In this document: in pieces, positions 16,824-34,676 of the stretch
How the letters are laid out: every line of letters begins with the position of its first letter
How positions within the stretch are numbered: the first letter of the stretch is position 1
Source: a virus
Virus record (IMG/VR): IMGVR_UViG_3300028534_000022
Coordinates: 10,697 to 74,696 of that record
Length of the DNA stretch: 64,000 nt
Reading direction: 5' to 3' (one strand)
Notes under the pieces: generated by a model
The model's database searches: none
What the model was told of the DNA's origin: nothing
Seen by the model: the letters and a program-made list of their open reading frames with translations, nothing else
Position numbers and translations under genes: made by a program

Positions 16824-16883
16824 GTGTTCCATTTTTTTATAAACATATATCATAAAGATAGAACATATAAGGAGTAAGCAATG
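16824..16883 (+). promoter_or_regulatory. Promoter+RBS module, copy 1
   Basis: 54 bp identical to 50859-50912 (59/60 to the ATG); contains ACATATATCATAAAGATAGA and AAGGAG; preceded by a hairpin. Confidence 0.7.
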
Positions 16884-17399
16884 AGTAATGTAAAAGGACC
16901 ACTGATAGATGGGTTCGCTATCCACTGCGGTGAATGCGATAGAGTTATAACTCTTAAAGATGACATATACACTATAGGTTGTTGGCAAGGCACGTATGAT
17001 GAAACAGCAGAAGCTATAGATGCCGAATACAAAGGAGCAGCTAGAGATGAATATATAGCCAAACTAAATGAAGCTATAGATATGTTATGGTTAACTGATG
17101 AGCTACACGAACAGTTAAAAGATGATAAAGATTTAAGCATAAGAAAAGCTCTAGCGGCATATACCGATAAGCACCATCATCAGTATAAAGATGATCCTTG
17201 TTATGAAGTCAGAGAAATAGTAGCTAAATATAGTGATAAATATCACTATAAGCTTAAAGATGATCCTAGTTGGTCTGTTAGATTAGCTGTAGCTAAATAC
17301 AGTGATCGCTATCACGAGCAGTTGAAAGATGATCCTGATCGGGTAGTCAGAAAAGCTGTAGCTAAATATAATAATAAAAAAAAAAATAAGAATACATAA
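16881..17399 (+). CDS. HEAT-like repeat protein
   Basis: Four ~24-aa repeats LKDDxxxxVRxAVAKY. Confidence 0.7.
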   Translation: MSNVKGPLIDGFAIHCGECDRVITLKDDIYTIGCWQGTYDETAEAIDAEYKGAARDEYIAKLNEAIDMLWLTDELHEQLKDDKDLSIRKALAAYTDKHHHQYKDDPCYEVREIVAKYSDKYHYKLKDDPSWSVRLAVAKYSDRYHEQLKDDPDRVVRKAVAKYNNKKKNKNT

Positions 17400-22022: not shown

Positions 22023-23558
22023 ATGAACGATAAAATTACTATCATAGTTAGGAGGCTTAACTATGTAGTTAAACTACCTAGTATGCAATATAAGTATCTT
22101 ATAGAGACTATGTTAGTTAGGTTATCTACATATAGTTTTAAGTGGGACTACAAAAAGAAACGTAATGTACGGTTACGTGATAAAATATTTGCTACTGAAG
22201 ATAACATGAGAATGGAGTATAGATTTAATATCAATACTCTTAAGAACTTTATGTTATTATTAGGTAATAACTATATCAGTAAAGACAAACTCAACATTGT
22301 TTTCGAAAAAGAGTGTTATCCTGCTAAGTTAAATTGTGATTTAGCAGAACATATTACTACCAGAGATTATCAAAATGATTATATCGATTTACTCTTAAAG
22401 GGTAAAGATACTAAACCATATATGTTAGTAGACCTTTTTACTGGTTATGGTAAAACAACATTGTCTATGGCTGCTATCACAACTATTAAACAACGTACTA
22501 TGATATTGGTATTACCTAAATATATTGATAAATGGATATCTGATGTTAAAGCTAACACTACAGTAAAAGATAAAGATATTTATGTTGTTAAAGGTGGTGA
22601 CAGTTTAAATAAACTAATATTAGCAATAGAACAAGGAGCTACCTATGATTTTATTATTGTAGGTATTAGAACTATATATAACTATATTAAGTCTTATGAA
22701 ACTAGATTATACGATAGTGAATTTAGTTATGAAAGAACTCCTGATGAACTTATGGAAGCTTTAGGTGTTGGTGTTATTCTTAATGATGAAACACACCAAG
22801 AGTTTCATGCTGTTTATAAATGTTGTCTCTATTTTAACCCATGTAGGTTTATTGGCTTATCGGCTACACTAGATAACAACGATAAAAATCTAGTTAGAAT
22901 GTATGACACTATGTTCCCTAAAGATTGTCGTATATCTGGATTAGTGGAATATAAGCACTATGTTGAATCTTATAATATAGCATACAGAATACGTAATACT
23001 AAACGTATACAGTATCAAAGACAACAAGGCTATAACCATACATTATTAGAAGCAAGTATTATGCGTAATAGTGTATTATTAAAAGACTATGTTAATATGA
23101 TAACTTACTATGTTAAAGAGGGTTATTATAAAAGAAGAGAAGAAGGAGACAAAGCATTAATATTTGTTGCTAGTGTTAAGTTTGCTACTCTCTTGAAACA
23201 ACATATGGAAGTAATTTTTGAAGATATAGATGTTAGAAGATATGTTGAAGATGATCCTTATGAAAATCTTATGGATGGCGATCTAATAATTTCTACCCCC
23301 AATTCTGCTGGTGTGGCAGTGGATATTCCTGGACTTATTAGTGTATATCAAACAGTTGCTATTAAATCATTACAAATGAATAAACAAACATTTGGTAGAT
23401 TACGTAACTTAAAAGGTAAAGAGATGAGATACTATTCTTTTTATTGTAAAGATATACCTAAACATAAAGATATGATTCGAGTTCGTAAAGAAATATTATT
23501 ACCTTTTAGTAAACATTGGTATGAAGATGAGTATAGTAAAACATTAGAAGTAGTATAG
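22023..23558 (+). CDS. Superfamily 2 DEAH-type helicase (phiKZ gp75-like)
   Basis: Motif I LFTGYGKT, II DETH, III SATL, V STPNSAGVAVDIPGL, VI QTFGRLR. Confidence 0.88.
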   Translation: MNDKITIIVRRLNYVVKLPSMQYKYLIETMLVRLSTYSFKWDYKKKRNVRLRDKIFATEDNMRMEYRFNINTLKNFMLLLGNNYISKDKLNIVFEKECYPAKLNCDLAEHITTRDYQNDYIDLLLKGKDTKPYMLVDLFTGYGKTTLSMAAITTIKQRTMILVLPKYIDKWISDVKANTTVKDKDIYVVKGGDSLNKLILAIEQGATYDFIIVGIRTIYNYIKSYETRLYDSEFSYERTPDELMEALGVGVILNDETHQEFHAVYKCCLYFNPCRFIGLSATLDNNDKNLVRMYDTMFPKDCRISGLVEYKHYVESYNIAYRIRNTKRIQYQRQQGYNHTLLEASIMRNSVLLKDYVNMITYYVKEGYYKRREEGDKALIFVASVKFATLLKQHMEVIFEDIDVRRYVEDDPYENLMDGDLIISTPNSAGVAVDIPGLISVYQTVAIKSLQMNKQTFGRLRNLKGKEMRYYSFYCKDIPKHKDMIRVRKEILLPFSKHWYEDEYSKTLEVV

Positions 23559-23676
23559 TCTCAACGACTATGCTGCTATTTTTTCTTTTTTTCTTTTTCA
23601 GTGATGGTTAGGAAACTAATCTAACTAGACATGTGCACATTTCTAGAAAAAATAAATAAACAAATAAGGATTTTAA

Positions 23677-24315
23677 ATGGCTGGTATGGTAAGAATAACT
23701 AGCACAGGTGAAATTATTATTGGTACTAAAACATTAGTTATCGATAATTTAGTTTTTAAAGCACCTGATGACATAGTTGATATAGATGGTAGTTCGGTAC
23801 TTAATAGAGCTGGCATTGTTAGCTTAACTGATTTTAATACGCTAACAGATAAGGTTACGCTTAATGAAGAAACTATTCCGCTAAAAGCAGATAAAAGTTA
23901 TGTAGATGGAATACTGTTAAATAAAGCAGATATTTCTGAAGTAATCTTAAAAAGTGACTTAAGTACAATACAAACAGAAACACCAATTATTAGCGGGTCT
24001 ACTAGTGTTAATGAATTTAGTACAGTTAATTATACTATAGATAATTATAATAGTACTTTTATTTATTTAATAACATGTGATAATGGTGAAGTTACACTAA
24101 ACAACGATGGAACATTTGATGTAACATTTGGTGAAGTAATTAGTGATGCTATAGCTACCATTGAAGCAAAAGCTATTGAACCAGGTATGTTGACGAGTAA
24201 TGCAGTAACATTGAATGTTAATGTAATCAATATTCCGTTAGTAGATGACCAAGTATTAATTAATCCTGACTTTACGACATATGTTGGTAGTAGTTCGGGA
24301 TTTGTAACAATTTAA
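23677..24315 (+). CDS. Putative virion/fibre adaptor with C-terminal Ig-like domain (paralog of 29006..29641)
   Basis: Shares PIISGxTSxxExxTVxxTIDN...G..S...D..LIN with 29006..29641; precedes an FG-GAP protein. Confidence 0.6.
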   Translation: MAGMVRITSTGEIIIGTKTLVIDNLVFKAPDDIVDIDGSSVLNRAGIVSLTDFNTLTDKVTLNEETIPLKADKSYVDGILLNKADISEVILKSDLSTIQTETPIISGSTSVNEFSTVNYTIDNYNSTFIYLITCDNGEVTLNNDGTFDVTFGEVISDAIATIEAKAIEPGMLTSNAVTLNVNVINIPLVDDQVLINPDFTTYVGSSSGFVTI

Positions 24316-24326
24316 GGAGATATTAG

Positions 24327-27300
24327 ATGTTAAAAAGTATAAAAAAATATTCTGAATTTACAGAAACAATAACTACACAAGAAGAAATTGATAGTGATTG
24401 GGGACTAGTAGCAAGTACTAATCTAACAGTGAAAAGTGAAGAAGTTATATTAGATAATAACGCAACAACAAATACTTCTTTAGTAACATTAGATCCGTAT
24501 GGAATAAATAAATATACGGATATATCAGTAATCTCTGATACGGGCGTTTCGGAAATAAATATTGCAGACAGTGTTATTGGTAATTTTAATTCTGTTAAAA
24601 GTAATACTATGACTGCTAGTGATGCTCAAGATAACAGTAGTTATGGTCGTAATGTTACATTAACTAGTGACGGATTAGTAATGGTTGTAGGAGCATTTAC
24701 TTATGACACAACAGCAGGTACAGATGCAGGTAAAGTATACACATATAAGAGAGCTACTATAGATGATACATGGACTGAAGTTAACCAATTAACAGCTAGT
24801 GATGCTGCTGATAGTGATCGTTTTGGACACAGTGTAGCTCTATCTAGTGATGGTCTAATATTGGTAGTAGGTACACATACAGCAGATACAGCAGGTACAG
24901 ATGCAGGTAAAGTATACACATATAAGAGAGCTACTATAGATGATGCTTGGGTAGAAGTTAACCAGTTGACAGCTAGTGATGCACAAAATTATGATTATTT
25001 TGGTATCTCTGTTGCTATATCTGATGATGGTTTAATATTGGTAGTAGGTGCACCTGGTGAAGATACTGCTGTAAATTATGGAGGTAAAGTCTATACATAT
25101 AAAAGAGCTACTGTAAATGACACATGGACTGAAGTTAACCAACTAACAGCTAGTGATGCTGCTGATAGTGATGAATTTGGATTTTCAGTATCTGTAAATT
25201 CAGAGGGATTAATACTGTTAGTTGGTGCGTGGCGTAAAGATGGAACATATCTAAATGAAGGTAAAGTCTACACATATAAAAGAGCTACTATAGATGATGC
25301 TTGGACTGAAGTTAACCAGATAACTCCTTCAAATGTTGCTGCTGACGATTATCGTTTTGGGGTAGCAGCAAGTATTTCTGATAATGGATTATTGGCAATA
25401 ATTTCCAATTATACGGTTAATGTTAATACTGCTACACCTAGCACAGTAACATTATATAAAAGAGCTACTATAGATGATGTATGGACAGAAATAACAGTGT
25501 TACAAAATGATACTGGTAGCGCTAGTTTCGGAGTAACATTATCTTTAGCATATGGTTCAAAAATACTGGCATTAGGTGATCAACTTATAAATAATGGTCA
25601 AGGTGAGGTATATATGTATAAAATAGGATATCAATTTACAAAAGATATTACCTCTTTAAATTTAACCACAGCACCTACTAAAGCTTTTGTTAAAAAAGAT
25701 GTTAACCTATATATTGATTTAGAAGCTAATAAAAATGAGGTAGTTAATAATTCAAATACTTTTTATTTAAATATTAAAGATACTACTGCTACTGACGGTA
25801 CTAATATTATTACTGATTATGATGAAAGATTATTACCTGGAACTACATTAACTATCGATACTGTAAAAAATAATATTGTTGGTATTACTGGTGGTGAAGT
25901 TGATTTAACACAAATAATAGAAGTTAACCAGTTAACAGCTAGTGATGCTGCTGATAGTGATTATTTTGGTATATCTGTAGCATTATCTTCAGATGGGTTA
26001 GTATTAACAGTAGGTGCTAGAGCGGAAGATACAGCAGGTACCGATGCTGGTAAAGTATACACATATAAAAGAGCTACTATAGATGATACATGGGTAGAAG
26101 TTAACCAGTTAACAGCTAGTGATGCTGCTGATAGTGATTATTTTGGTAGTGGCGTCGCTCTATCTAGTGATGGTCTAATATTGGTAGTAGGTGCACATGC
26201 AGCAGATACAGCAGCTACTGATGCAGGTAAAGTCTATACATATAAAAGAGCTACTATAGATGATACATGGGTAGAAGTTAACCAGTTAACAGCTAGTGAT
26301 GCTGCTGATAGTGATTATTTTGGTAGTGGCGTCGCTCTATCTAGTGATGGGTTAGTATTAGTTGTAGGTGCGGCTAGTGAAGATACTGCTGATACAGATG
26401 CTGGTAAAGTCTACACATATAAAAGAGCTACTATAGATGATGCTTGGACTGAAGTTAACCAACTTACAGCTAGTGATGCTGCAGCTAGTGATCATTTTGG
26501 CTTTAGCGTAGCTCTATCAGGAGATGGTCTAGTAGCTATGGTAGGTGCTTATACTGAAGATACAGCAGGTACCGATGCTGGTAAAGTCTATACGTATACA
26601 AGAGCTACTATAGATGATGTATGGACTGAAGTTAACCAACTAACAGCTAGTGATGCTGCTGATAGTGATCAATTTGGTATATCTGTAGCGCTATCTAGTG
26701 ATGGTCTAGTGTTAGTTGTAAGTGCTTATGCTGAAGATACAGCAGCTAGTGATGCTGGTAAGGTATATGTCTATAAAAGAGCTACGATAGATGATGCTTG
26801 GACTGAAGTTAACCAACTAACAGCTAGTGATGCTCAAGATAGTGATTTATACGGTAGAAGTGTTGGTCTATCTGGTAATGGACTAGTATTAGTAGTAGGT
26901 GCTTATACTGAAGATACCGCAGCTAGTGATGCAGGTAAAGTATACACATATAAACATAATCGTAATGATTTAATATTAGATATTACTAACCACGGTTTAA
27001 CTTCTAAACCAACAAAAGCTTATTTAGAAGGCGGAGAATATACTAAATCGTTTAATAGCGTAATCACAAGTAACACACAAACAGTATTCTTTTCAAAACC
27101 AACAGTTAATCTTAATGATAAAATCTATTTAGATTATATAGAAGTAAATGTAGATAGTGTAGAAAATAGTTTGGTTTCCGATTTAACGCAAATAACAGAA
27201 GTTAACCAGTTAACAGCTAGTGATGCTACTGCTAATGATTATTTTGGCGTAAGTGTGTATTTATCAGGAGATGGGTTAGTATTAATAGTAGGCGCATATG

Positions 27301-28484
27301 GTTCTGATACAGCAGCTACTGATGCAGGTAAAGTCTATACATATAAAAGAGCTACTATAGATGATACATGGGTAGAAGTTAACCAGTTAACAGCTAGTGA
27401 TGCACAAGCTAGTGATTATTTTGGTAGTGGCGTCGCTCTATCTAGTGATGGGTTAGTATTAATAGTGGGTGCGATATATGAAGATACTGCTGATACAGAT
27501 GCTGGTAAAGTCTATACATATACAAGAGCTACTATAGATGATGCTTGGACTGAAGTTAACCAACTAACAGCTAGTGATGCTGCTGCTAATGATCAATTTG
27601 GTATATCTGTAGCATTATCTTCAGATGGGTTAGTATTAACAGTAGGTGCTAGAGCGGAAGATACAGCAGGTACTGATGCAGGTAAAGTCTATACATATAA
27701 AAGAGCTACTATAGATGATACATGGGTAGAAGTTAACCAGTTAACAGCTAGTGATGCTGCTGCTAATGATCAATTTGGACAGTCTCTTGATCTATCTAGT
27801 GATGGTTTAAATATGGTAGTAGGTGCATATTTACAAGATACAGCAGGTACAGATGCTGGTAAAGTCTATACATATAAAAGAGCTACTATAGATGATGCTT
27901 GGACTGAAGTTAACCAGTTAACAGCTAGTGATGCTGCTGCTAGTGATCAATTTGGTGTAAGTGTTTCTATAAATACAGATGGTACTGTGTTAGTAGTCGG
28001 CGCATATAGCGTTGATAACTTAGATGCTGATACAGGTAAAGTATATTTATATCAAAGAGTTACGATTAACGATGCTTGGACAGAAGTTAACCAATTAACA
28101 GCTAGCGATGCAGTTGCTAGTGATAATTTTGGTATAGATGTCGCAATCTCATCTGACGGAAAAACATTGGTAGTAGGTGCTCATTGTTCCGATACTGCAG
28201 CTACTGATGCTGGTAAAGTATATGCTTATAAATTAGGTACTATTACAAGAAATATAGTTACACATGTAGATATCGGAAAACAACCAAAAACCATTATTGT
28301 ACCTAATAGAGGAGTATTAGTGGATCTGAATTATAAATCTTATGATTCAGTTAGTAACGGGTTAAAATATACTTTTAATGATTACTACAAACAAGGTAGA
28401 GCTATTTCTCGCAAACTAACAGCTATTGAACCAGATACATATCTAGTAGAACCATTAACATCTACACTACAAAAAGTACAATAG
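24327..28484 (+). CDS. Large FG-GAP (integrin-alpha-like) repeat protein, three blocks of six repeats; putative receptor-binding protein
   Basis: 18 copies of a ~58-aa unit EVNQLTASDAxxxDxFGxSVALSSDGLVLxVGAxxEDTAxTDAGKVYTYKRATIDDxW. Confidence 0.8.
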   Translation: MLKSIKKYSEFTETITTQEEIDSDWGLVASTNLTVKSEEVILDNNATTNTSLVTLDPYGINKYTDISVISDTGVSEINIADSVIGNFNSVKSNTMTASDAQDNSSYGRNVTLTSDGLVMVVGAFTYDTTAGTDAGKVYTYKRATIDDTWTEVNQLTASDAADSDRFGHSVALSSDGLILVVGTHTADTAGTDAGKVYTYKRATIDDAWVEVNQLTASDAQNYDYFGISVAISDDGLILVVGAPGEDTAVNYGGKVYTYKRATVNDTWTEVNQLTASDAADSDEFGFSVSVNSEGLILLVGAWRKDGTYLNEGKVYTYKRATIDDAWTEVNQITPSNVAADDYRFGVAASISDNGLLAIISNYTVNVNTATPSTVTLYKRATIDDVWTEITVLQNDTGSASFGVTLSLAYGSKILALGDQLINNGQGEVYMYKIGYQFTKDITSLNLTTAPTKAFVKKDVNLYIDLEANKNEVVNNSNTFYLNIKDTTATDGTNIITDYDERLLPGTTLTIDTVKNNIVGITGGEVDLTQIIEVNQLTASDAADSDYFGISVALSSDGLVLTVGARAEDTAGTDAGKVYTYKRATIDDTWVEVNQLTASDAADSDYFGSGVALSSDGLILVVGAHAADTAATDAGKVYTYKRATIDDTWVEVNQLTASDAADSDYFGSGVALSSDGLVLVVGAASEDTADTDAGKVYTYKRATIDDAWTEVNQLTASDAAASDHFGFSVALSGDGLVAMVGAYTEDTAGTDAGKVYTYTRATIDDVWTEVNQLTASDAADSDQFGISVALSSDGLVLVVSAYAEDTAASDAGKVYVYKRATIDDAWTEVNQLTASDAQDSDLYGRSVGLSGNGLVLVVGAYTEDTAASDAGKVYTYKHNRNDLILDITNHGLTSKPTKAYLEGGEYTKSFNSVITSNTQTVFFSKPTVNLNDKIYLDYIEVNVDSVENSLVSDLTQITEVNQLTASDATANDYFGVSVYLSGDGLVLIVGAYGSDTAATDAGKVYTYKRATIDDTWVEVNQLTASDAQASDYFGSGVALSSDGLVLIVGAIYEDTADTDAGKVYTYTRATIDDAWTEVNQLTASDAAANDQFGISVALSSDGLVLTVGARAEDTAGTDAGKVYTYKRATIDDTWVEVNQLTASDAAANDQFGQSLDLSSDGLNMVVGAYLQDTAGTDAGKVYTYKRATIDDAWTEVNQLTASDAAASDQFGVSVSINTDGTVLVVGAYSVDNLDADTGKVYLYQRVTINDAWTEVNQLTASDAVASDNFGIDVAISSDGKTLVVGAHCSDTAATDAGKVYAYKLGTITRNIVTHVDIGKQPKTIIVPNRGVLVDLNYKSYDSVSNGLKYTFNDYYKQGRAISRKLTAIEPDTYLVEPLTSTLQKVQ
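24600..28240 (+). repeat. ~174-bp coding tandem repeats in 3 blocks (approximate bounds)
   Basis: Recurring GAAGTTAACCA(A/G)(T/C)TAACAGCTAGTGATGC and GGTAAAGT(A/C)TA(T/C)AC(A/T)TATAA(A/G)AGAGCTACTATAGATGA. Confidence 0.85.
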
Positions 28485-28533
28485 TTATAAGGTAATCCCT
28501 ATAACTTAGATTTAATATATAAGGAAATTCATT

Positions 28534-28923
28534 ATGGTAAAATATGAAATAATTAATAAACAAAAAGGCATGCTTGTTACTAAAGCAGTTAAAGCTGTTA
28601 TGGACGATACTCCTAAAACAGATAAAAAATATCGAGTTAGAAAAGAGATCAATGAGAAAGTATTTGATTTAGATGATTCAGTTGCTGATAATTCTAAAAT
28701 GATTTCATTACTCACAACAGTACTTTCACGTATCTACGACGTATTACCAGATACTGAAAAAGATAATCTTAATGCTGATGACAGAGCAATGATCGAATAT
28801 ATGTTTTCTAAGTTTAAAACTACTAACACTAGAGCAGATGTACAGTTCGCTACTGAAGGTGTTAGTCTTATTGACAAATTACTCGATAGACAAGCAGATA
28901 TAGGAACTATAGTACAACAATAG
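28534..28923 (+). CDS. Hypothetical protein, possibly a fibre chaperone
   Basis: RBS AAGGAA; follows the FG-GAP gene. Confidence 0.6.
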   Translation: MVKYEIINKQKGMLVTKAVKAVMDDTPKTDKKYRVRKEINEKVFDLDDSVADNSKMISLLTTVLSRIYDVLPDTEKDNLNADDRAMIEYMFSKFKTTNTRADVQFATEGVSLIDKLLDRQADIGTIVQQ

Positions 28924-28942
28924 TACTATTTAGAAATACAAT

Positions 28943-28977
28943 GTCTATTACTCGCAACTATATAGCGAGTAATAGAC
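28943..28977 (+). terminator. Hairpin
   Basis: GTCTATTACTCGC-N9-GCGAGTAATAGAC. Confidence 0.55.
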
Positions 28978-29005
28978 TTATTATAAATGATTATGAGGAA
29001 TAATA

Positions 29006-29641
29006 ATGTATGAATTATATTTAACTACAAATAATGAACTTTATTCAAATCAAAAGTTTGTTGATGTGGACAATATACTACTTTATATAGACGGGGTGTT
29101 TTACGACCTTAACAATGTTGATGTTAGTAATAACATTGGTTTTGTACCCACTACAGCTTATACCGAATTAGTTGGTCGTGTAGATAATAATACTTTATTG
29201 TTAGCACAAAAGATAGATACTATAGAATTTGATCAACTAGCTTCTCTTAAAGCTAACTTAGAAGATATTGTCACTGCTGACTATTTGAACGAATTAATGA
29301 CTCCTAAACCTATTATTAGTGGTCCTACTAGTATTGTTGAGAAAACTACTGTAACATTAACTATTGATAATTTTGTATCTACACAAACTTATTATATTAG
29401 TACAGATTACGGTACATATACTTTTGATACTAGTAACGGAACTATAGAATTTACAGCTATAGGAACAGACTTAGATATCACTGCTAATATTAAAGTACAA
29501 ACTATTGAAGAAGGTAAACTACTTAGTTTTCCTACGTACTATAATTTCACGATAGAACCAGTACCATTTACTGCTGACCAATATCTTATTAATTCTGATT
29601 ACGAAACAAATGAAGAAGATAGTACAGGTATTGAATATTAA
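29006..29641 (+). CDS. Putative virion/fibre adaptor with Ig-like domain (paralog of 23677..24315)
   Basis: C-terminal half aligns with 23677..24315. Confidence 0.6.
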   Translation: MYELYLTTNNELYSNQKFVDVDNILLYIDGVFYDLNNVDVSNNIGFVPTTAYTELVGRVDNNTLLLAQKIDTIEFDQLASLKANLEDIVTADYLNELMTPKPIISGPTSIVEKTTVTLTIDNFVSTQTYYISTDYGTYTFDTSNGTIEFTAIGTDLDITANIKVQTIEEGKLLSFPTYYNFTIEPVPFTADQYLINSDYETNEEDSTGIEY

Positions 29642-29651
29642 AGGATATTTT

Positions 29652-29795
29652 ATGTTAGAATATATTGTTTCTCTCTATTACAAGATGCTAACATTTTTTA
29701 GTAAAAGAGAGAGTATAAATGAAAATGTTAATGATGAAAAAGTCATTAACGAAACAGATTGCCCTATGCATCTGTATCAAGAAGATAAGGATTAA
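29652..29795 (+). CDS. Small hypothetical protein (47 aa)
   Basis: ATG at 29652 with RBS AAGGA; fills the gap between adaptor and FG-GAP gene. Confidence 0.45.
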   Translation: MLEYIVSLYYKMLTFFSKRESINENVNDEKVINETDCPMHLYQEDKD

Positions 29796-29798
29796 TAC

Positions 29799-32700
29799 AT
29801 GAAAAGTATGATAGATAATGCTACATATGTAGAAAATATAACTGAACAAGAAGTTACTGAAAAAGCATGGACTAAGTTTGGAGAAAGTACAGTAACTCAT
29901 GACCCAGGAAGATTAGGGTTTAGAAGTTGTGCTAAAATTTTAGATAGTACTGACCCATTTGGAGATGGTAGTTTAACTAATAAGTATTTGTTTTTTAACG
30001 ATACTACTACTGATTTAACAGGTAATCGTGATTTATCTTTAGTTGGTGATGTAGCGTTAATAGATTCTATTTATGGTAAAGGTATAAATTGTTTAAGTCC
30101 GGATACCAGCCCTACTAGCGATTATTCAAATCTGGATATAAATTTTTTTAATGACAATGATTCATTCAGCATACATATTGTATTTATGGTTAATAGTTGT
30201 TCTTCCGGATTAACTAATTCAATATATTCAAATTATAATTGTGATATCCAAGTATATACTGGATTAATATTCTACGACGACTTAATGTTGCGATATAGTT
30301 ATTGGGATAGAAATACATCTAGTACAGCATACCATAATATCTTACCTCATGCTTTAGAATTAAATAAAAAATATGTAGTGACGGTAACTACAGATAAACA
30401 AACTAATACAAATACATTATATGTTAATGGTATGTTGGTCGATAAAGTTGTACATAGTGCTATTGCTAATAATTTAAGTCAAACACCAAGAATTTTTGGA
30501 TGGGAGAATAACTGTGATAATAATAATCATATTAGTGCTGATGTAGTTATCTATGAATTAGAGCTCTATAATAGAGCATTAACACACGAAGACCATCTTA
30601 AATTATTAACACAGGTGTTAAGTACTGAAGAAAAAGTAAATACAATTTACCCAGTAACTAAAGAGATACCTTCTTCTATTTACGAGAATATGCTAGTTGC
30701 TAATACCAATAATAGTATTTTAAATATGAAAGTTGATAGTGTTGAAAGAGATATCTTTACTATAGTCGAAAAACAACAACTTACTGCCAGTGATGCTCAA
30801 GATAGTGATTTATATGGCGCATCTGTAGCCATATCTAGTGACGGATTAGTATTAGCAGTAGGTTCTAATTATGAAGATACAGCAGGTACAGATGCAGGTA
30901 AAGTATATACCTATAAAAGAGCTACTGTAAATGACGTATGGACTGAAGTTAACCAACTTACTGCCAGTGATGCTCAAGATAGTGATTTATATGGCGTATC
31001 TGTAGCCATATCTAATGATGGGTTAGTGTTAGTAGTAGGAGCATATACTGAAGATACGGCAGGTACTAATGCAGGTAAAGTATACACTTATAAGAGAGCC
31101 ACTATAGATGATACATGGACTGAAGTTAACCAACTAACAGCTAGTGATGCTCAAGATAATGATAATTTTGGTAGCAGTGTATCTATGTCTAATAATGGTT
31201 TAGTAATGGCTGTAGGCGCATATGGCGAGGATACTGCTGTAAACTTAGCTGGTAAAGTCTATACATATAAAAGAGCTACTATAGATGATACATGGGTAGA
31301 AGTTAACCAACTAACAGCTAGCGATGCCCAAGATAGTGATGAATTTGGTAAATCAGTAGCACTATCTAATAATGGTTTGGTATTGACCGTAGGTGCGTAT
31401 TATGAAGATACGGCAGGTACTAATGCAGGTAAAGTATACACTTATAAAAGACCTACTGTAAATGACGTATGGACTGAAGTTAACCAACTAACAGCTAGTA
31501 ATGCTGGGGCTGGTGATTATTTTGGTTCATCTACTGCATTATCTGGTGATGGGCTAGTGTTAGTAGTTGGAGCAAATGGTGAAGATGATGCGTCAGGGGA
31601 TGCTGGTAAAGTATACACTTATAAGAGAGCTACTATAGATGATGCTTGGGTAGAAGTTAACCAACTAACAGCTAGCGATGCACAAGATAGTGACTATTTT
31701 GGTGTGAGTGTTTCTATAAATGCAGATGGCGCTATCTTGGTAGTAGGTGCGAAAAATAAAGATGTAGCCGGCACTAACACTGGTAAAGTTTACGAATATC
31801 GCATAGGCGATTTAGTAATAGCTGATATTACAACATCTAATACAAATAATGAAGTAATCATAGATGCTTTCGAAGATAATGATTTACATTTATTAATGAC
31901 TTTAGAAGATACTAAAGATAGATGTATTAGTATTCCTAATAATCAGCATTTAGATATTGTTGCTGTAAATGATCCGTATAATAATATTATTACTGTTAAT
32001 ACAGATATAGATATTAATACAGGAATGAATGTTATGGCTGATGGAGTAAATCAGTCTTTAACTAATGTTACATTTAAGGAAGTCGATTTTAATACTATTA
32101 CTGAAATAAGTCAGCTATACGCACTAGATACATCAACTAACGATCAATATGGGTCTGCTGTATCTATTACTAACGATGGATTAATTATGTTGGTAGGTGC
32201 ATATGGTAATGATTCAATAGATAATGATACTGGTAAAGTATATGAATATCAAAGAAAATCGATTTATGATAGCTGGGTAGAAGTTAACCAACTAACAGCT
32301 AGTGACGCTACTGCTGGTGATTATTTTGGTACATCTGTATCAATATCTAATGACGGCTTAGTGTTAATTGTTGGCGCATCATATGAAGATACTGCAGGTA
32401 GTAACGCCGGTAAAGTATATACCTATAAAAGAGCTACTGTAAATGACGTATGGACTGAAGTTAACCAACTAACAGCTAGTGATGCTCAAGATAATGATAA
32501 TTTTGGTAGACGTTTATCCTTATCTAGTGACGGATTAGTATTAGTAGTAGGAGCATATTTACAAGATACTGCAGCTACTGATGCAGGTAAAGTCTATACT
32601 TATAAGAGATCTACTATAGATGATACATGGACTGAAGTTAACCAACTAACAGCTAGTGATGCTGCAGCTAGTGATGGGTTTGGTCATGGGTTAACATTAG

Positions 32701-34631
32701 CAAATAATGGGTTACTTATGATCGTTGGGGCGTATAATGAGGGTAGTGGAGCAGGTAAAGTTTATGAATATCAGAGAGTAAGCATAAATGACGCATGGAC
32801 TGAAATAAGACAAATGACTGCTCTGAATAGTGGCGGTGATGATCGTTTTGGTATAGGTGTGGCTGTTTCTGAAAATGGATTAGTAATGGCGGTAGGCGCT
32901 GATTATGCTGACGATAATGGAACTAATGCTGGTAAAGTATATGTGTACCAAAGATCTACAATAACAGATAATTGGACAGAAGAACTAAGAATGACTGCAG
33001 CAGACGGACAAGCATCTGATTATTATGGTCAAGGAGTTGCTGTTGGTTTAGATGGAAAAATATTAATTGTTGGTTCTATGGGTGCAGATACAACAACTAC
33101 TGATACCGGTAAAGTATATGAATACCGATCTAATGGTGTTTATGATTTAGATTTAACTAACCATAACCTTACTAATAATCCTAGATTACTCTATATTAAT
33201 GGTGGCTTAGAATTTAATTTAAAATCAATTACCAGTACAGAAGCTATAGGATATGTAGATTACCGTAACTATAAAGGTATTGCTAATAAACACAATTACC
33301 TTACTACTGGAGATACTTTAAATATTGATGGTAAAGATATAGTTCTTACAAATACGGTATCTAATATAGGTGAAATTTTATTTGATACTATTACTGAAAT
33401 AAGACAACTAACTGCTAGTGATGCCGGAGATGGTGCACAATACGGTGCTAGTGTAGATATTTCTGATGATAAATTAATGTTATTTATAGGTGCAACATTC
33501 GGTGTTTCTGATGGTGTCGATACAGGTAAAGTATACGAATATCGTCGCTCTACTATGGATGATGATTGGGTAGAAATCAGTAATTTTTGCGCATCCGATA
33601 GCGCATCCGGAGATAATTTTGGGTCAGCTGTTAATATAACGAATAATGGATTAATCTTATTAGTAGGTGCCGCTAACCATAGTGGTGATAATGGTAAAGT
33701 CTACGAATACCAAAGACCAGATATAGATTCTGATTGGACAGAAGTTAATGTTTTAAATGCAAGATCAACAGATGAAAGATTTGGTAAAAGTATAGATAGT
33801 ACTCCAGATGGACTCACATTGGTAGTCGGAGCTAAATACTATGATTCCGGAATTGGTAGAGTATATACATATTATAGACAAACTATCAATGACGAGTGGA
33901 CATTTGATGAAACAATTTCTTCAACTAGTACAAATATGGAATATTTCGGAGATGATGTTGCTATTAGTAGTAATGGTATGGCATTAATTATTGGCGCGCA
34001 TTATAACAATAGTACTCGAGGTATAGCATATAGTTATGTTAAAGATGATACATGGACTAGAATTAATACTATTTTACCTTCAGATATATCATCAGAAGAT
34101 AGATTTGGTATGGGTTTAGATATGTCATCTGATGGATTATTATGTGCGATTTCTTCACTTACTGAAGATACTGCAGCTAGTAATGCTGGTAAAGTATACT
34201 TTTTTAAACGAGACAGGATAGATTCTAGCTGGAATGAATTTATGACAATAACTGCTAGCGATGCTCAAGATAATGATTATTATGGTATGGGTGTAGCATT
34301 ATCTAGCGACGGGCTTGTATTAGTAGTAGGAGCATTTTTACAAGATACTGCAGCTAGTAATGCAGGTAAAGCATATATATATCAAATGGATTATATTGAA
34401 GATATTACTGTAACTTATGATGATTTAGGATATACTCCTATTAAAGCAAAAGTTCCTAATAGACAAACATTAATTCCTATTAGTAACAAACTATATGAAT
34501 TAACCAATATTAAACATACTTATGGTGAATTCATTAAAGGAGGTAGAGCAGTTCAACGTACACTTATCATGTCTAAAAAAGATATGGTAGTTAAAGAACC
34601 ACTTTCTACATTATTATATTATCAAACATAA
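29799..34631 (+). CDS. LamG/concanavalin-like domain plus 3 x 6 FG-GAP repeats; putative receptor-binding protein
   Basis: N-terminal DPFGDGS...FSIHIVF...LYVNG...IYELELYNRALT (LamG-like); 18 FG-GAP units; C-terminus GRAVQR...EPLS paralogous to GRAISR...EPLT of 24327..28484. Confidence 0.8.
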   Translation: MKSMIDNATYVENITEQEVTEKAWTKFGESTVTHDPGRLGFRSCAKILDSTDPFGDGSLTNKYLFFNDTTTDLTGNRDLSLVGDVALIDSIYGKGINCLSPDTSPTSDYSNLDINFFNDNDSFSIHIVFMVNSCSSGLTNSIYSNYNCDIQVYTGLIFYDDLMLRYSYWDRNTSSTAYHNILPHALELNKKYVVTVTTDKQTNTNTLYVNGMLVDKVVHSAIANNLSQTPRIFGWENNCDNNNHISADVVIYELELYNRALTHEDHLKLLTQVLSTEEKVNTIYPVTKEIPSSIYENMLVANTNNSILNMKVDSVERDIFTIVEKQQLTASDAQDSDLYGASVAISSDGLVLAVGSNYEDTAGTDAGKVYTYKRATVNDVWTEVNQLTASDAQDSDLYGVSVAISNDGLVLVVGAYTEDTAGTNAGKVYTYKRATIDDTWTEVNQLTASDAQDNDNFGSSVSMSNNGLVMAVGAYGEDTAVNLAGKVYTYKRATIDDTWVEVNQLTASDAQDSDEFGKSVALSNNGLVLTVGAYYEDTAGTNAGKVYTYKRPTVNDVWTEVNQLTASNAGAGDYFGSSTALSGDGLVLVVGANGEDDASGDAGKVYTYKRATIDDAWVEVNQLTASDAQDSDYFGVSVSINADGAILVVGAKNKDVAGTNTGKVYEYRIGDLVIADITTSNTNNEVIIDAFEDNDLHLLMTLEDTKDRCISIPNNQHLDIVAVNDPYNNIITVNTDIDINTGMNVMADGVNQSLTNVTFKEVDFNTITEISQLYALDTSTNDQYGSAVSITNDGLIMLVGAYGNDSIDNDTGKVYEYQRKSIYDSWVEVNQLTASDATAGDYFGTSVSISNDGLVLIVGASYEDTAGSNAGKVYTYKRATVNDVWTEVNQLTASDAQDNDNFGRRLSLSSDGLVLVVGAYLQDTAATDAGKVYTYKRSTIDDTWTEVNQLTASDAAASDGFGHGLTLANNGLLMIVGAYNEGSGAGKVYEYQRVSINDAWTEIRQMTALNSGGDDRFGIGVAVSENGLVMAVGADYADDNGTNAGKVYVYQRSTITDNWTEELRMTAADGQASDYYGQGVAVGLDGKILIVGSMGADTTTTDTGKVYEYRSNGVYDLDLTNHNLTNNPRLLYINGGLEFNLKSITSTEAIGYVDYRNYKGIANKHNYLTTGDTLNIDGKDIVLTNTVSNIGEILFDTITEIRQLTASDAGDGAQYGASVDISDDKLMLFIGATFGVSDGVDTGKVYEYRRSTMDDDWVEISNFCASDSASGDNFGSAVNITNNGLILLVGAANHSGDNGKVYEYQRPDIDSDWTEVNVLNARSTDERFGKSIDSTPDGLTLVVGAKYYDSGIGRVYTYYRQTINDEWTFDETISSTSTNMEYFGDDVAISSNGMALIIGAHYNNSTRGIAYSYVKDDTWTRINTILPSDISSEDRFGMGLDMSSDGLLCAISSLTEDTAASNAGKVYFFKRDRIDSSWNEFMTITASDAQDNDYYGMGVALSSDGLVLVVGAFLQDTAASNAGKAYIYQMDYIEDITVTYDDLGYTPIKAKVPNRQTLIPISNKLYELTNIKHTYGEFIKGGRAVQRTLIMSKKDMVVKEPLSTLLYYQT
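30770..34390 (+). repeat. ~174-bp coding repeats, second gene (approximate bounds; third block divergent)
   Basis: Same unit as 24600-28240 in blocks 1-2, degenerate in block 3. Confidence 0.8.
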
Positions 34632-34644
34632 TATAATCAATACA

Positions 34645-34676
34645 TACTACAAGTCCTTCATTGAGGACTTGTAGTA
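34645..34676 (+). terminator. Hairpin terminator upstream of the lysis/TCS block
   Basis: TACTACAAGTCCT-N6-AGGACTTGTAGTA. Confidence 0.65.

Follow-up and report, generated by a model that had tools for sequence, protein, structure and literature searches.

Giant FG-GAP_2 proteins with predicted six-bladed propellers and separate anchor proteins as candidate adhesion fibers of an uncultured phiKZ-like jumbo phage

A 64,000-nucleotide (nt) stretch of viral DNA (hereafter the window), which is part of the 75.3-kb IMG/VR viral contig IMGVR_UViG_3300028534_000022, carries five consecutive plus-strand genes (P0001, P0002, P0003, P0004, and P0005) that include two giant repeat proteins, each preceded by a small anchor, or adaptor, protein. 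Both giant proteins contain three separate blocks of six FG-GAP_2 repeat units, and each block is predicted to close as a six-bladed propeller. On balance, we favor the view that the giant proteins and their anchors are host-adhesion fibers of the virus particle. A first-pass annotation had described this locus correctly in nearly every detail, and the open reading frames (ORFs) were found exactly at the coordinates it gave.

Against the Pfam family FG-GAP_2 (PF14312, gathering cut-off of 23 bits), P0002 scored 714.3 bits (E 1e-220) and P0005 scored 613.5 bits (E 3e-189), in both cases over 16 stretches. By using a hidden Markov model constructed from the regular repeats (the unit HMM), we counted 18 FG-GAP units of ~59 amino acids (aa) in each protein, arranged in contiguous runs of 6+6+6. 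The total of 36 units in three blocks of six per giant protein agrees with the first-pass annotation. The gaps of 76 to 97 aa between the blocks of P0002 and P0005 yielded no unit even at E ≤ 10. These spacers had been described as repeated, and a similar short motif (D-I/L-T-x3-L-x3-P-x-K/A) indeed follows every propeller, but outside this motif the spacers differ from one another. The last ~80 residues of P0002 and P0005 are 37% identical (E 3e-18), confirming that the C-termini are paralogous, and a G-R-A-I/V-x-R ... V-E-P-L motif in this region is common to P0002, P0005, P0007, P0011, P0016, and P0025. The LamG domain assigned to the second giant protein was likewise recovered: aa 111–265 of P0005 match Laminin_G_3 (PF13385) at 28.6 bits (cut-off 27.6, E 1.9e-6) when aa 1–330 are scanned alone, although this match is not listed in the whole-protein Pfam scan. 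Laminin_G_3 is also matched in the relatives P0008 and P0016. The features of the cassette, all on the plus strand and numbered by window position, are given below.

23549–23577, +: terminator-like hairpin with a T-run, just 3′ of the helicase gene; upstream cassette boundary.
23677–24315, +: P0001, anchor/adaptor protein A, 212 aa.
23974–24231, +: P0001 predicted immunoglobulin (Ig)-like sandwich, aa 100–185.
24327–28484, +: P0002, giant propeller protein 1, 1385 aa.
24327–24461, +: P0002 conserved N-terminal junction motif, aa 1–45, found directly after the adaptor module in fused relatives.
24600–25625, +: P0002 propeller block 1, aa 92–433, six FG-GAP_2 units, the last two degenerate.
25626–25916, +: P0002 spacer 1, aa 434–530, a low-confidence fold in the monomer model.
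25917–26966, +: P0002 propeller block 2, aa 531–880, modeled as 24 strands in six four-stranded blades (confidence score ~96).
26967–27194, +: P0002 spacer 2, aa 881–956.
27195–28247, +: P0002 propeller block 3, aa 957–1307, six units.
28248–28481, +: P0002 conserved C-terminal domain, aa 1308–1385.
28534–28923, +: P0003, small conserved protein of 129 aa between the two cassettes.
29006–29641, +: P0004, anchor/adaptor protein B, 211 aa, paralog of P0001.
29652–29795, +: 47-aa ORF in the gap between adaptor B and giant protein 2; doubtful gene.
29799–34631, +: P0005, giant propeller protein 2, 1610 aa.
30129–30593, +: P0005 LamG/concanavalin-A-like domain, aa 111–265, PF13385.
30765–31811, +: P0005 propeller block 1, aa 323–671, six units.
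32100–33146, +: P0005 propeller block 2, aa 768–1116, six units.
33393–34403, +: P0005 propeller block 3, aa 1199–1535, six units, more diverged.
34404–34628, +: P0005 C-terminal domain, paralogous to that of P0002.
34645–34676, +: terminator-like hairpin with a 14-bp stem, just 3′ of P0005; downstream cassette boundary.

A grouping in sixes is unusual for this family. Of the thousands of FG-GAP_2 proteins found when 5.8 billion proteins were searched, most are cellular surface proteins, and in the best 117 homologs the unit HMM recovered 99 blocks of 7 units, 48 of 14, 4 of 21, and 26 of 6. The repeats of P0002 and P0005 are not grouped in the usual sevens of the family. Six-unit blocks occur mainly in the nearest relatives (P0007, P0008, P0011, P0013, P0016, P0024, P0025, P0069, P0074, and P0067), many of which share the N-terminal motif and the conserved C-terminal domain with P0002 and P0005. 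Because the usual block size among the 117 homologs is seven, six units mark a small, mostly phage-linked sublineage. The "strict sixes" of the first-pass annotation do not hold throughout this clade, however. P0007 is arranged as 6+6+5, P0016 likewise closes with a block of five, and uninterrupted runs of twelve units occur in P0008, P0011, and P0013, while a variant of P0002 in another assembly (L009) has 6+4. In IMG/VR, neither the C-terminal domain nor a single block as the query gave confirmed relatives, and the C-terminal domain had no usable ESM Atlas match.

To obtain a structural model, aa 439–960 of P0002 (spacer, block 2, and spacer) were folded with AlphaFold2 (AF2) on an alignment of 26 six-unit modules. 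Block 2 was modeled with a predicted local distance difference test (pLDDT) score of ~96 and exactly 24 strands that recur regularly in sets of four. Its first strand (E-V-N-Q-L) lacks preceding partner strands, and its last unit, the sixth, ends the block with its third strand; a six-bladed ring closed in "velcro" fashion would be expected to show this layout. In a rigid structural search, the model superposed on PknD over 249 of 254 residues (2.5 Å, Z 25.8), on the TRIM71 NHL domain (Z 27.1), and on all 226 of the 226 residues of tectonin-2 (5FSB, 2.7 Å). Sialidases, phytase, and lactonases were further complete six-bladed matches, and whole six-bladed domains superposed at 2.5 to 3.2 Å. A sequence search of solved structures with a single block returned nothing at E ≤ 0.01.

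The count of six could instead be an artifact of repeat detection if each six-unit block, together with part of an adjacent spacer, formed a seven-bladed integrin-like propeller. Seven is the norm of the FG-GAP_2 family, and integrin alpha4 gave the highest Z of the rigid search (28.4, over 314 residues at 3.6 Å), with six-bladed folds close behind, within ~1.5 Z units. Foldseek also ranks integrins first (E 3e-16), at a root-mean-square deviation of 6 to 9 Å and 15 to 17% identity. Nevertheless, the flanking spacers have monomer pLDDT values below 50 and no blade-like pattern, the unit HMM is blank there, the model has exactly 24 strands, and whole six-bladed domains superpose on it. Moreover, homologs with seven units per block have equally long spacers of ~90 aa, which argues that a spacer is not a decayed seventh blade. 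We therefore regard the seven-bladed alternative as very improbable, and six closed blades per block, the fold proposed in the first-pass annotation, is the best-supported reading of the model.

The fold matches also bear on whether the propellers bind or catalyze. Many of the six-bladed matches are hydrolases or lyases (the sialidases, phytase, and lactonases), and the LamG region of P0005 has weak matches to sialidase N-terminal and trans-sialidase lectin domains. Instead of binding passively like lectins, the propellers might act as enzymes on the virion, for example as polysaccharide lyases or sialidase-like depolymerases, and the possibility of an enzymatic function has likewise been raised for gp131, a fiber protein of phage phiKZ (PMC13250141, PMC4901313). 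The blades of P0002, however, are 70 to 92% identical at the DNA level and keep the same conserved residues in each blade, which is easier to reconcile with a series of equivalent binding sites than with a single asymmetric active site, and no enzyme family is matched by sequence. An enzymatic function accordingly seems unlikely to us.

The second component of the cassette is the anchor. P0001 and P0004 are paralogs (31% identity, E 6e-23). An AF2 model based on a 23-sequence alignment predicts a beta domain (aa 1–40), helices (aa 50–98), an Ig-like sandwich (aa 100–185, pLDDT ~96), and a tail (aa 186–212) that is conserved yet disordered in the model. The predicted Ig-like domain, which the first-pass annotation had recognized in both adaptors, passes as a generic seven-stranded sandwich of the Big/PKD/filamin type. 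Its rigid-search matches reach Z 8.7 for intimin D00–D0 and for a PKD domain, Foldseek returned cadherin, Ig, and PKD domains, and no fold search went beyond generic matches to Ig, PKD, invasin, and filamin domains. By sequence, neither adaptor has a Pfam match and P0004 has no PHROGs match, whereas P0001 has two weak PHROGs matches, to phrog_8401 ("beta-propeller repeat protein," E 2.6e-4) and phrog_12519. An adaptor profile found nothing meaningful among solved structures.

A profile search of 1.84 billion representatives recovered 442 adaptor relatives, among which the Ig-plus-tail part is widespread and at times in tandem. Some giant metagenomic proteins carry the Ig-like domain 14 to 21 times in tandem (for example P0128, 3456 aa; P0131, 3096 aa; and P0215, 1911 aa). 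Full-length adaptors (189–214 aa) fall into four clades, of which A and B are of the window type and C and D of the type found in contig L007. P0001 groups with P0006, while the separate clade B holds P0004 together with P0009, and therefore the A/B duplication is probably older than the split between the window phage and its relative L006.

In several relatives the adaptor module is not a separate protein. It forms the N-terminal part of larger proteins with FG-GAP heads (P0025, a 958-aa protein of contig L008, P0069, and P0067) or with LamG heads (P0155, P0189, and P0258). The junction motif, represented by an HMM of the N-terminal 45 residues of the separately encoded giant proteins, matches fused proteins immediately past the adaptor module: P0025 at 206–245 (E 2e-10), the L008 protein at 222–259, P0155 at 203–242, and P0242 at 156–197. 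This signal of gene fission or fusion suggests, at the level of sequence, that adaptor and giant protein work as a single unit, in keeping with the pairing proposed in the first-pass annotation. A complex prediction with adaptor aa 95–212 and giant aa 1–100 scored 0.00 and counts neither way. Among cultured phage records, P0258 (aa 1–560, tblastn) was matched only via a different domain (aa 261–433). The PHROGs assignments of the genes next to the fused homolog in L008 were confined to function-unknown families, and the gene contexts of P0076 and P0074 were uninformative.

The arrangement is conserved beyond the window. The order RNA polymerase (RNAP), helicase, adaptor(s), and giant protein is kept in L006, L007, L009, and L018; the upstream genes in related contigs are always an RNAP subunit and a helicase, and the downstream genes are cell-wall hydrolases, plus a spanin in L007. 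L006, from another metagenome, repeats the full arrangement with a 212-aa adaptor (46% identity), a 1303-aa protein, a 130-aa protein, a 214-aa adaptor, and a 1622-aa protein. In its second giant protein, P0008 (11986–16854), LamG lies between propellers 2 and 3 and not at the N-terminus, which indicates from sequence comparison with P0005 that domains have been reshuffled inside one orthologous giant gene. Propellers 1 and 2 of P0008 abut with almost no spacer. In a sister group of these phages, two different adaptors stand in tandem before a single giant gene, as in L007 (6784–7983), L018 (5672–6841), and L019 (280–1485); the giant protein of L007 has 12+6 units, and those of L018 and L019 are unassembled. 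In L016, an adaptor is followed by the N-terminus of a giant protein. Two adaptor types are present in every genome seen, irrespective of the number of giant genes, which hints at a hetero-oligomeric fiber base.

Within the window, because terminator-like hairpins lie on both sides, the cassette looks like its own transcription module; a palindrome is also located 3′ of P0002. The small protein P0003 is 66% identical to its L006 counterpart, well above the flanking adaptors (46%), and has no Pfam match, no PHROGs match, and no usable ESM Atlas match. A role as a fiber assembly factor would be a guess. The 47-aa ORF at 29652–29795 is called as a gene in L009, and the corresponding gap does not exist in L006.

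These observations are most readily accommodated by two paralogous adhesion fibers, most likely peripheral tail or baseplate fibers. Each anchor would contribute an N-terminal beta domain, a probably oligomerizing helical stretch, an Ig-like domain, and a conserved docking tail, and would hold a giant chain of three six-bladed FG-GAP_2 propellers separated by spacers of ~80 to 95 aa and closed by the conserved C-terminal domain. The second fiber would add a lectin-type LamG domain. The many near-identical blades could provide multivalent binding of low affinity and high avidity to a repeated structure of the host surface, probably a glycan, and the two paralogs could provide two specificities. 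We speculate that the low-confidence spacers and termini are shaft segments that fold only in the oligomer.

Several lines of evidence argue for adhesion fibers. A conserved anchor with varied heads is, by analogy, the usual layout of phage receptor-binding proteins; there are two paralogous sets, one with an added LamG domain; and the near-identical blades suggest repeated equivalent binding sites. The giant proteins carry no evident export signal, and this fits assembly of a virion inside the cell. The cassette also sits before lysis genes, and there are precedents in phiKZ, phi11, and cyanophages. A receptor-binding or adhesion role, as the first-pass annotation had put forward, is thus plausible.

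Other findings weigh against this interpretation. No recognized tail or baseplate gene adjoins the cassette, whose neighbors are RNAP and helicase genes upstream, amidase/endolysin lysis genes, and a sensor kinase gene. Because the spacers and termini are poorly modeled, a fiber-like shaft is hypothetical. When all 36 window proteins were compared with phiKZ gp122–146 (phmmer), nothing fell below E 0.009 and the cassette proteins gave nothing, so the tie to the phiKZ fibers is one of analogy and position only. Neither the two adaptors nor a fused adaptor N-terminus had a match in 50,697 cultured phage records (tblastn). The variable unit positions (14–16, 18, 21, 37–39, and 43–45) lie mostly in loops that an integrin-like topology would place on the "top" face, but the non-synonymous difference is 0.38 in top loops versus 0.35 in bottom loops. 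Because this contrast is weak, amounting to only a mild enrichment, we make no strong claim of a binding face.

The same neighborhood would suit proteins that never join the virion but are expressed in the course of infection and take effect on or inside the host cell, for instance in envelope remodeling, in superinfection exclusion, or together with the neighboring lysis and two-component genes. The genes on either side (RNAP, helicase, amidase/endolysin, and sensor kinase) encode no structural proteins, and FG-GAP_2 proteins are mostly cellular surface proteins. When the N-termini were read by eye, however, P0002 and likewise the other giant protein showed no evident signal peptide or membrane anchor, unlike bacterial homologs such as P0014 and P0099, which begin with apparently typical signal peptides. 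In addition, ~11 kb of genome is given to this gene pair, which is conserved with its adaptor, and the adaptor domain occurs mostly in multi-domain, fiber-like phage and metagenome proteins. For these reasons we give a non-virion function only a small chance of being correct.

A comparable, rather low probability attaches to a role on the virion other than primary receptor binding, in which the proteins would be Hoc/BAM-like decorations of the capsid, neck, or sheath that stick the particle to environmental polymers, biofilm, or the matrix of a mineral mat. Ig-like and lectin-type modules are typical of decoration proteins, the fold matches of the adaptor Ig-like domain include phage neck whiskers, tail-tube Ig domains, and the phi29 prohead, and the cassette is not beside recognizable baseplate genes. 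The pairing of a conserved anchor with an exchangeable head and the presence of a paralog pair are nevertheless more typical of receptor-binding proteins, and the place of the cassette before lysis genes parallels that of the phiKZ fiber cluster. Host-adhesion fibers consequently remain our preferred reading.

The exact repeat number in this short-read assembly is not fully secure. L009 (ENA ERZ27262685, a different assembly) is identical to the window over ~18 kb except for one indel and one deletion. The deletion removes 1632 nt in frame from the P0002 gene and leaves an 841-aa protein of 6+4 units, and its end points lie within a 70-nt stretch that blocks 2 and 3 have in identical form (window 26061–26130 and 27693–27762). 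Because the blades of P0002 are so similar in DNA sequence, L009 may represent either a real recombinant or a collapsed assembly, and it is the absence of these 1632 nt between identical repeats that leaves the copy number less than certain. The diverged relative L006 independently gives 6+6+5 and 6+6+6 with the unit HMM. The sole other difference of L009 over the 18 kb is a single-base indel at window 17376, within the ORF at 16881–17399.

More tentatively, the cassette might represent a new type of fiber, in which a split, exchangeable anchor docks giant chains that each carry three closed six-bladed FG-GAP propellers, and in which recombination between blades (compare the 1632-nt variant) retunes avidity or host range. 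If the chains are trimeric, each such fiber would display at least nine propellers. We consider this a possibility with the balance against it. A search for a diversity-generating retroelement gave no RVT_1 match in the 75-kb contig, itself only ~28% of a genome.

The contig is ~28% complete as estimated by CheckV, has a GC content of ~30%, and encodes a multisubunit RNAP beta-type subunit, whose best relatives, at 25 to 30% identity, are in jumbo phages of Burkholderia, Ralstonia, Erwinia, and Pseudomonas. On the basis of this subunit and its relatives, we assign the contig to a distant, uncultured phiKZ-like jumbo phage, of which it is a fragment. The host of this phage branch is probably Campylobacterota-like, from a vent-type habitat. 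The RNAP–helicase flank had no match in phages (blastn).

The FG-GAP_2 repeat family, strings of several propellers, and propeller-bearing phage fibers were already known. What is new is the occurrence of predicted six-bladed blocks in a normally seven-bladed family, three per chain in two paralogs, and a separate anchor protein, attested by fused relatives, that is reused with LamG heads. To our knowledge, only seven- and eight-bladed forms of the FG-GAP family have been recognized, and we know of no six-bladed one. If the six-bladed fold is confirmed, the family would extend beyond these forms and would offer a compact, highly repetitive scaffold on which to study multivalent binding. Tail fibers set the host choice of jumbo phages and are the least understood part of these phages, although the practical value of the cassette is limited for now, the phage being uncultured.

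Among known systems, bacterial FG-GAP_2 surface proteins (from Cerasicoccus, Winogradskyella with T9SS, and Sulfurimonas) are of the same repeat family, at 35 to 50% identity, and likewise carry several propellers per chain with ~90-aa spacers. Unlike the window proteins, they have seven units per block and signal peptides or sorting domains (T9SS, Ig, cadherin), and the phage junction motif, C-terminal domain, and adaptor are all missing from them. The integrin alpha propeller shares the FG...GAP repeat logic and strand order but has seven blades, where our model has six. In integrins, a Ca2+-binding hairpin (DxDxDGxxD) lies between the FG strand and the GAP strand, whereas the consensus unit of the window proteins has a short S-S-D-G-L turn in its place. 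Tectonin-2, a six-bladed propeller lectin, resembles our model in its six-fold closed ring of near-identical blades, with no sequence relationship. Tachylectin-1, AAL, and RSL are further six-bladed propeller lectins, and in such proteins near-identical blades give one sugar site per blade.

FG-GAP proteins are also encoded by cultured phages. Cyanophage S-TIM5 gp054, an S-MbCM6 structural protein, and Vibrio phage nt-1 ORF127 contain FG-GAP_2-type repeats, and several are annotated as virion structural proteins. They differ in that they are single propellers of ~400 aa from T4-like or other myoviruses, with neither an adaptor nor a triple tandem, and are 31 to 36% identical. In the cultured, 469-kb Sinorhizobium phage Phosso, one hypothetical protein (~3,690 aa; PV764938.1, 57900–68978; L015) has FG-GAP-like repeats and is 25% identical over 90% of P0002; it is possibly a tractable system for propeller-string proteins.

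Propellers are less foreign to phage fibers than the first-pass annotation had stated, as the virion-annotated S-TIM5 protein, the phi11 receptor-binding protein, and phiKZ gp131 illustrate. The protein of Staphylococcus phage phi11 (Gp45) is trimeric, with a five-bladed propeller proposed to hold the N-acetylglucosamine (GlcNAc) receptor (PMC4901313). It resembles the window proteins in using a propeller as a phage receptor-binding module, but has five blades and one propeller per chain, belongs to a siphovirus, and has no sequence relation to them. In phiKZ, the type phage of the phiKZ-like lineage, the fibers consist of gp131 paralogs; gp131 terminates in a seven-bladed propeller that has been proposed to touch the host first (PMC13250141), and its C-terminal domain corresponds to PDB 4GBF (as cited in PMC4901313). 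These fibers were located in a cryo-electron microscopy (cryo-EM) map only in 2026, and the propeller tips remain unresolved there (cryo-EM atlas PMC13250141). Like the cassette, phiKZ gp131, gp133, gp134, and gp135 belong to a jumbo phage with a multisubunit RNAP, are encoded by tandem paralogous genes, and are followed by lysis genes: after the gp131–135 fiber genes come an endonuclease, a spanin, and the gp144 lysin. By analogy, both systems would also have a shared N-terminal attachment part with a helical bundle and a distal beta-propeller proposed to bind the host. However, gp131 has one seven-bladed propeller that is not FG-GAP_2 as far as tested, compared with three predicted six-bladed propellers per chain here, and the attachment part here is a separate polypeptide. 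A distant branch of the phiKZ group may thus rely on another propeller family, with several propellers per chain and the fiber divided between two proteins.

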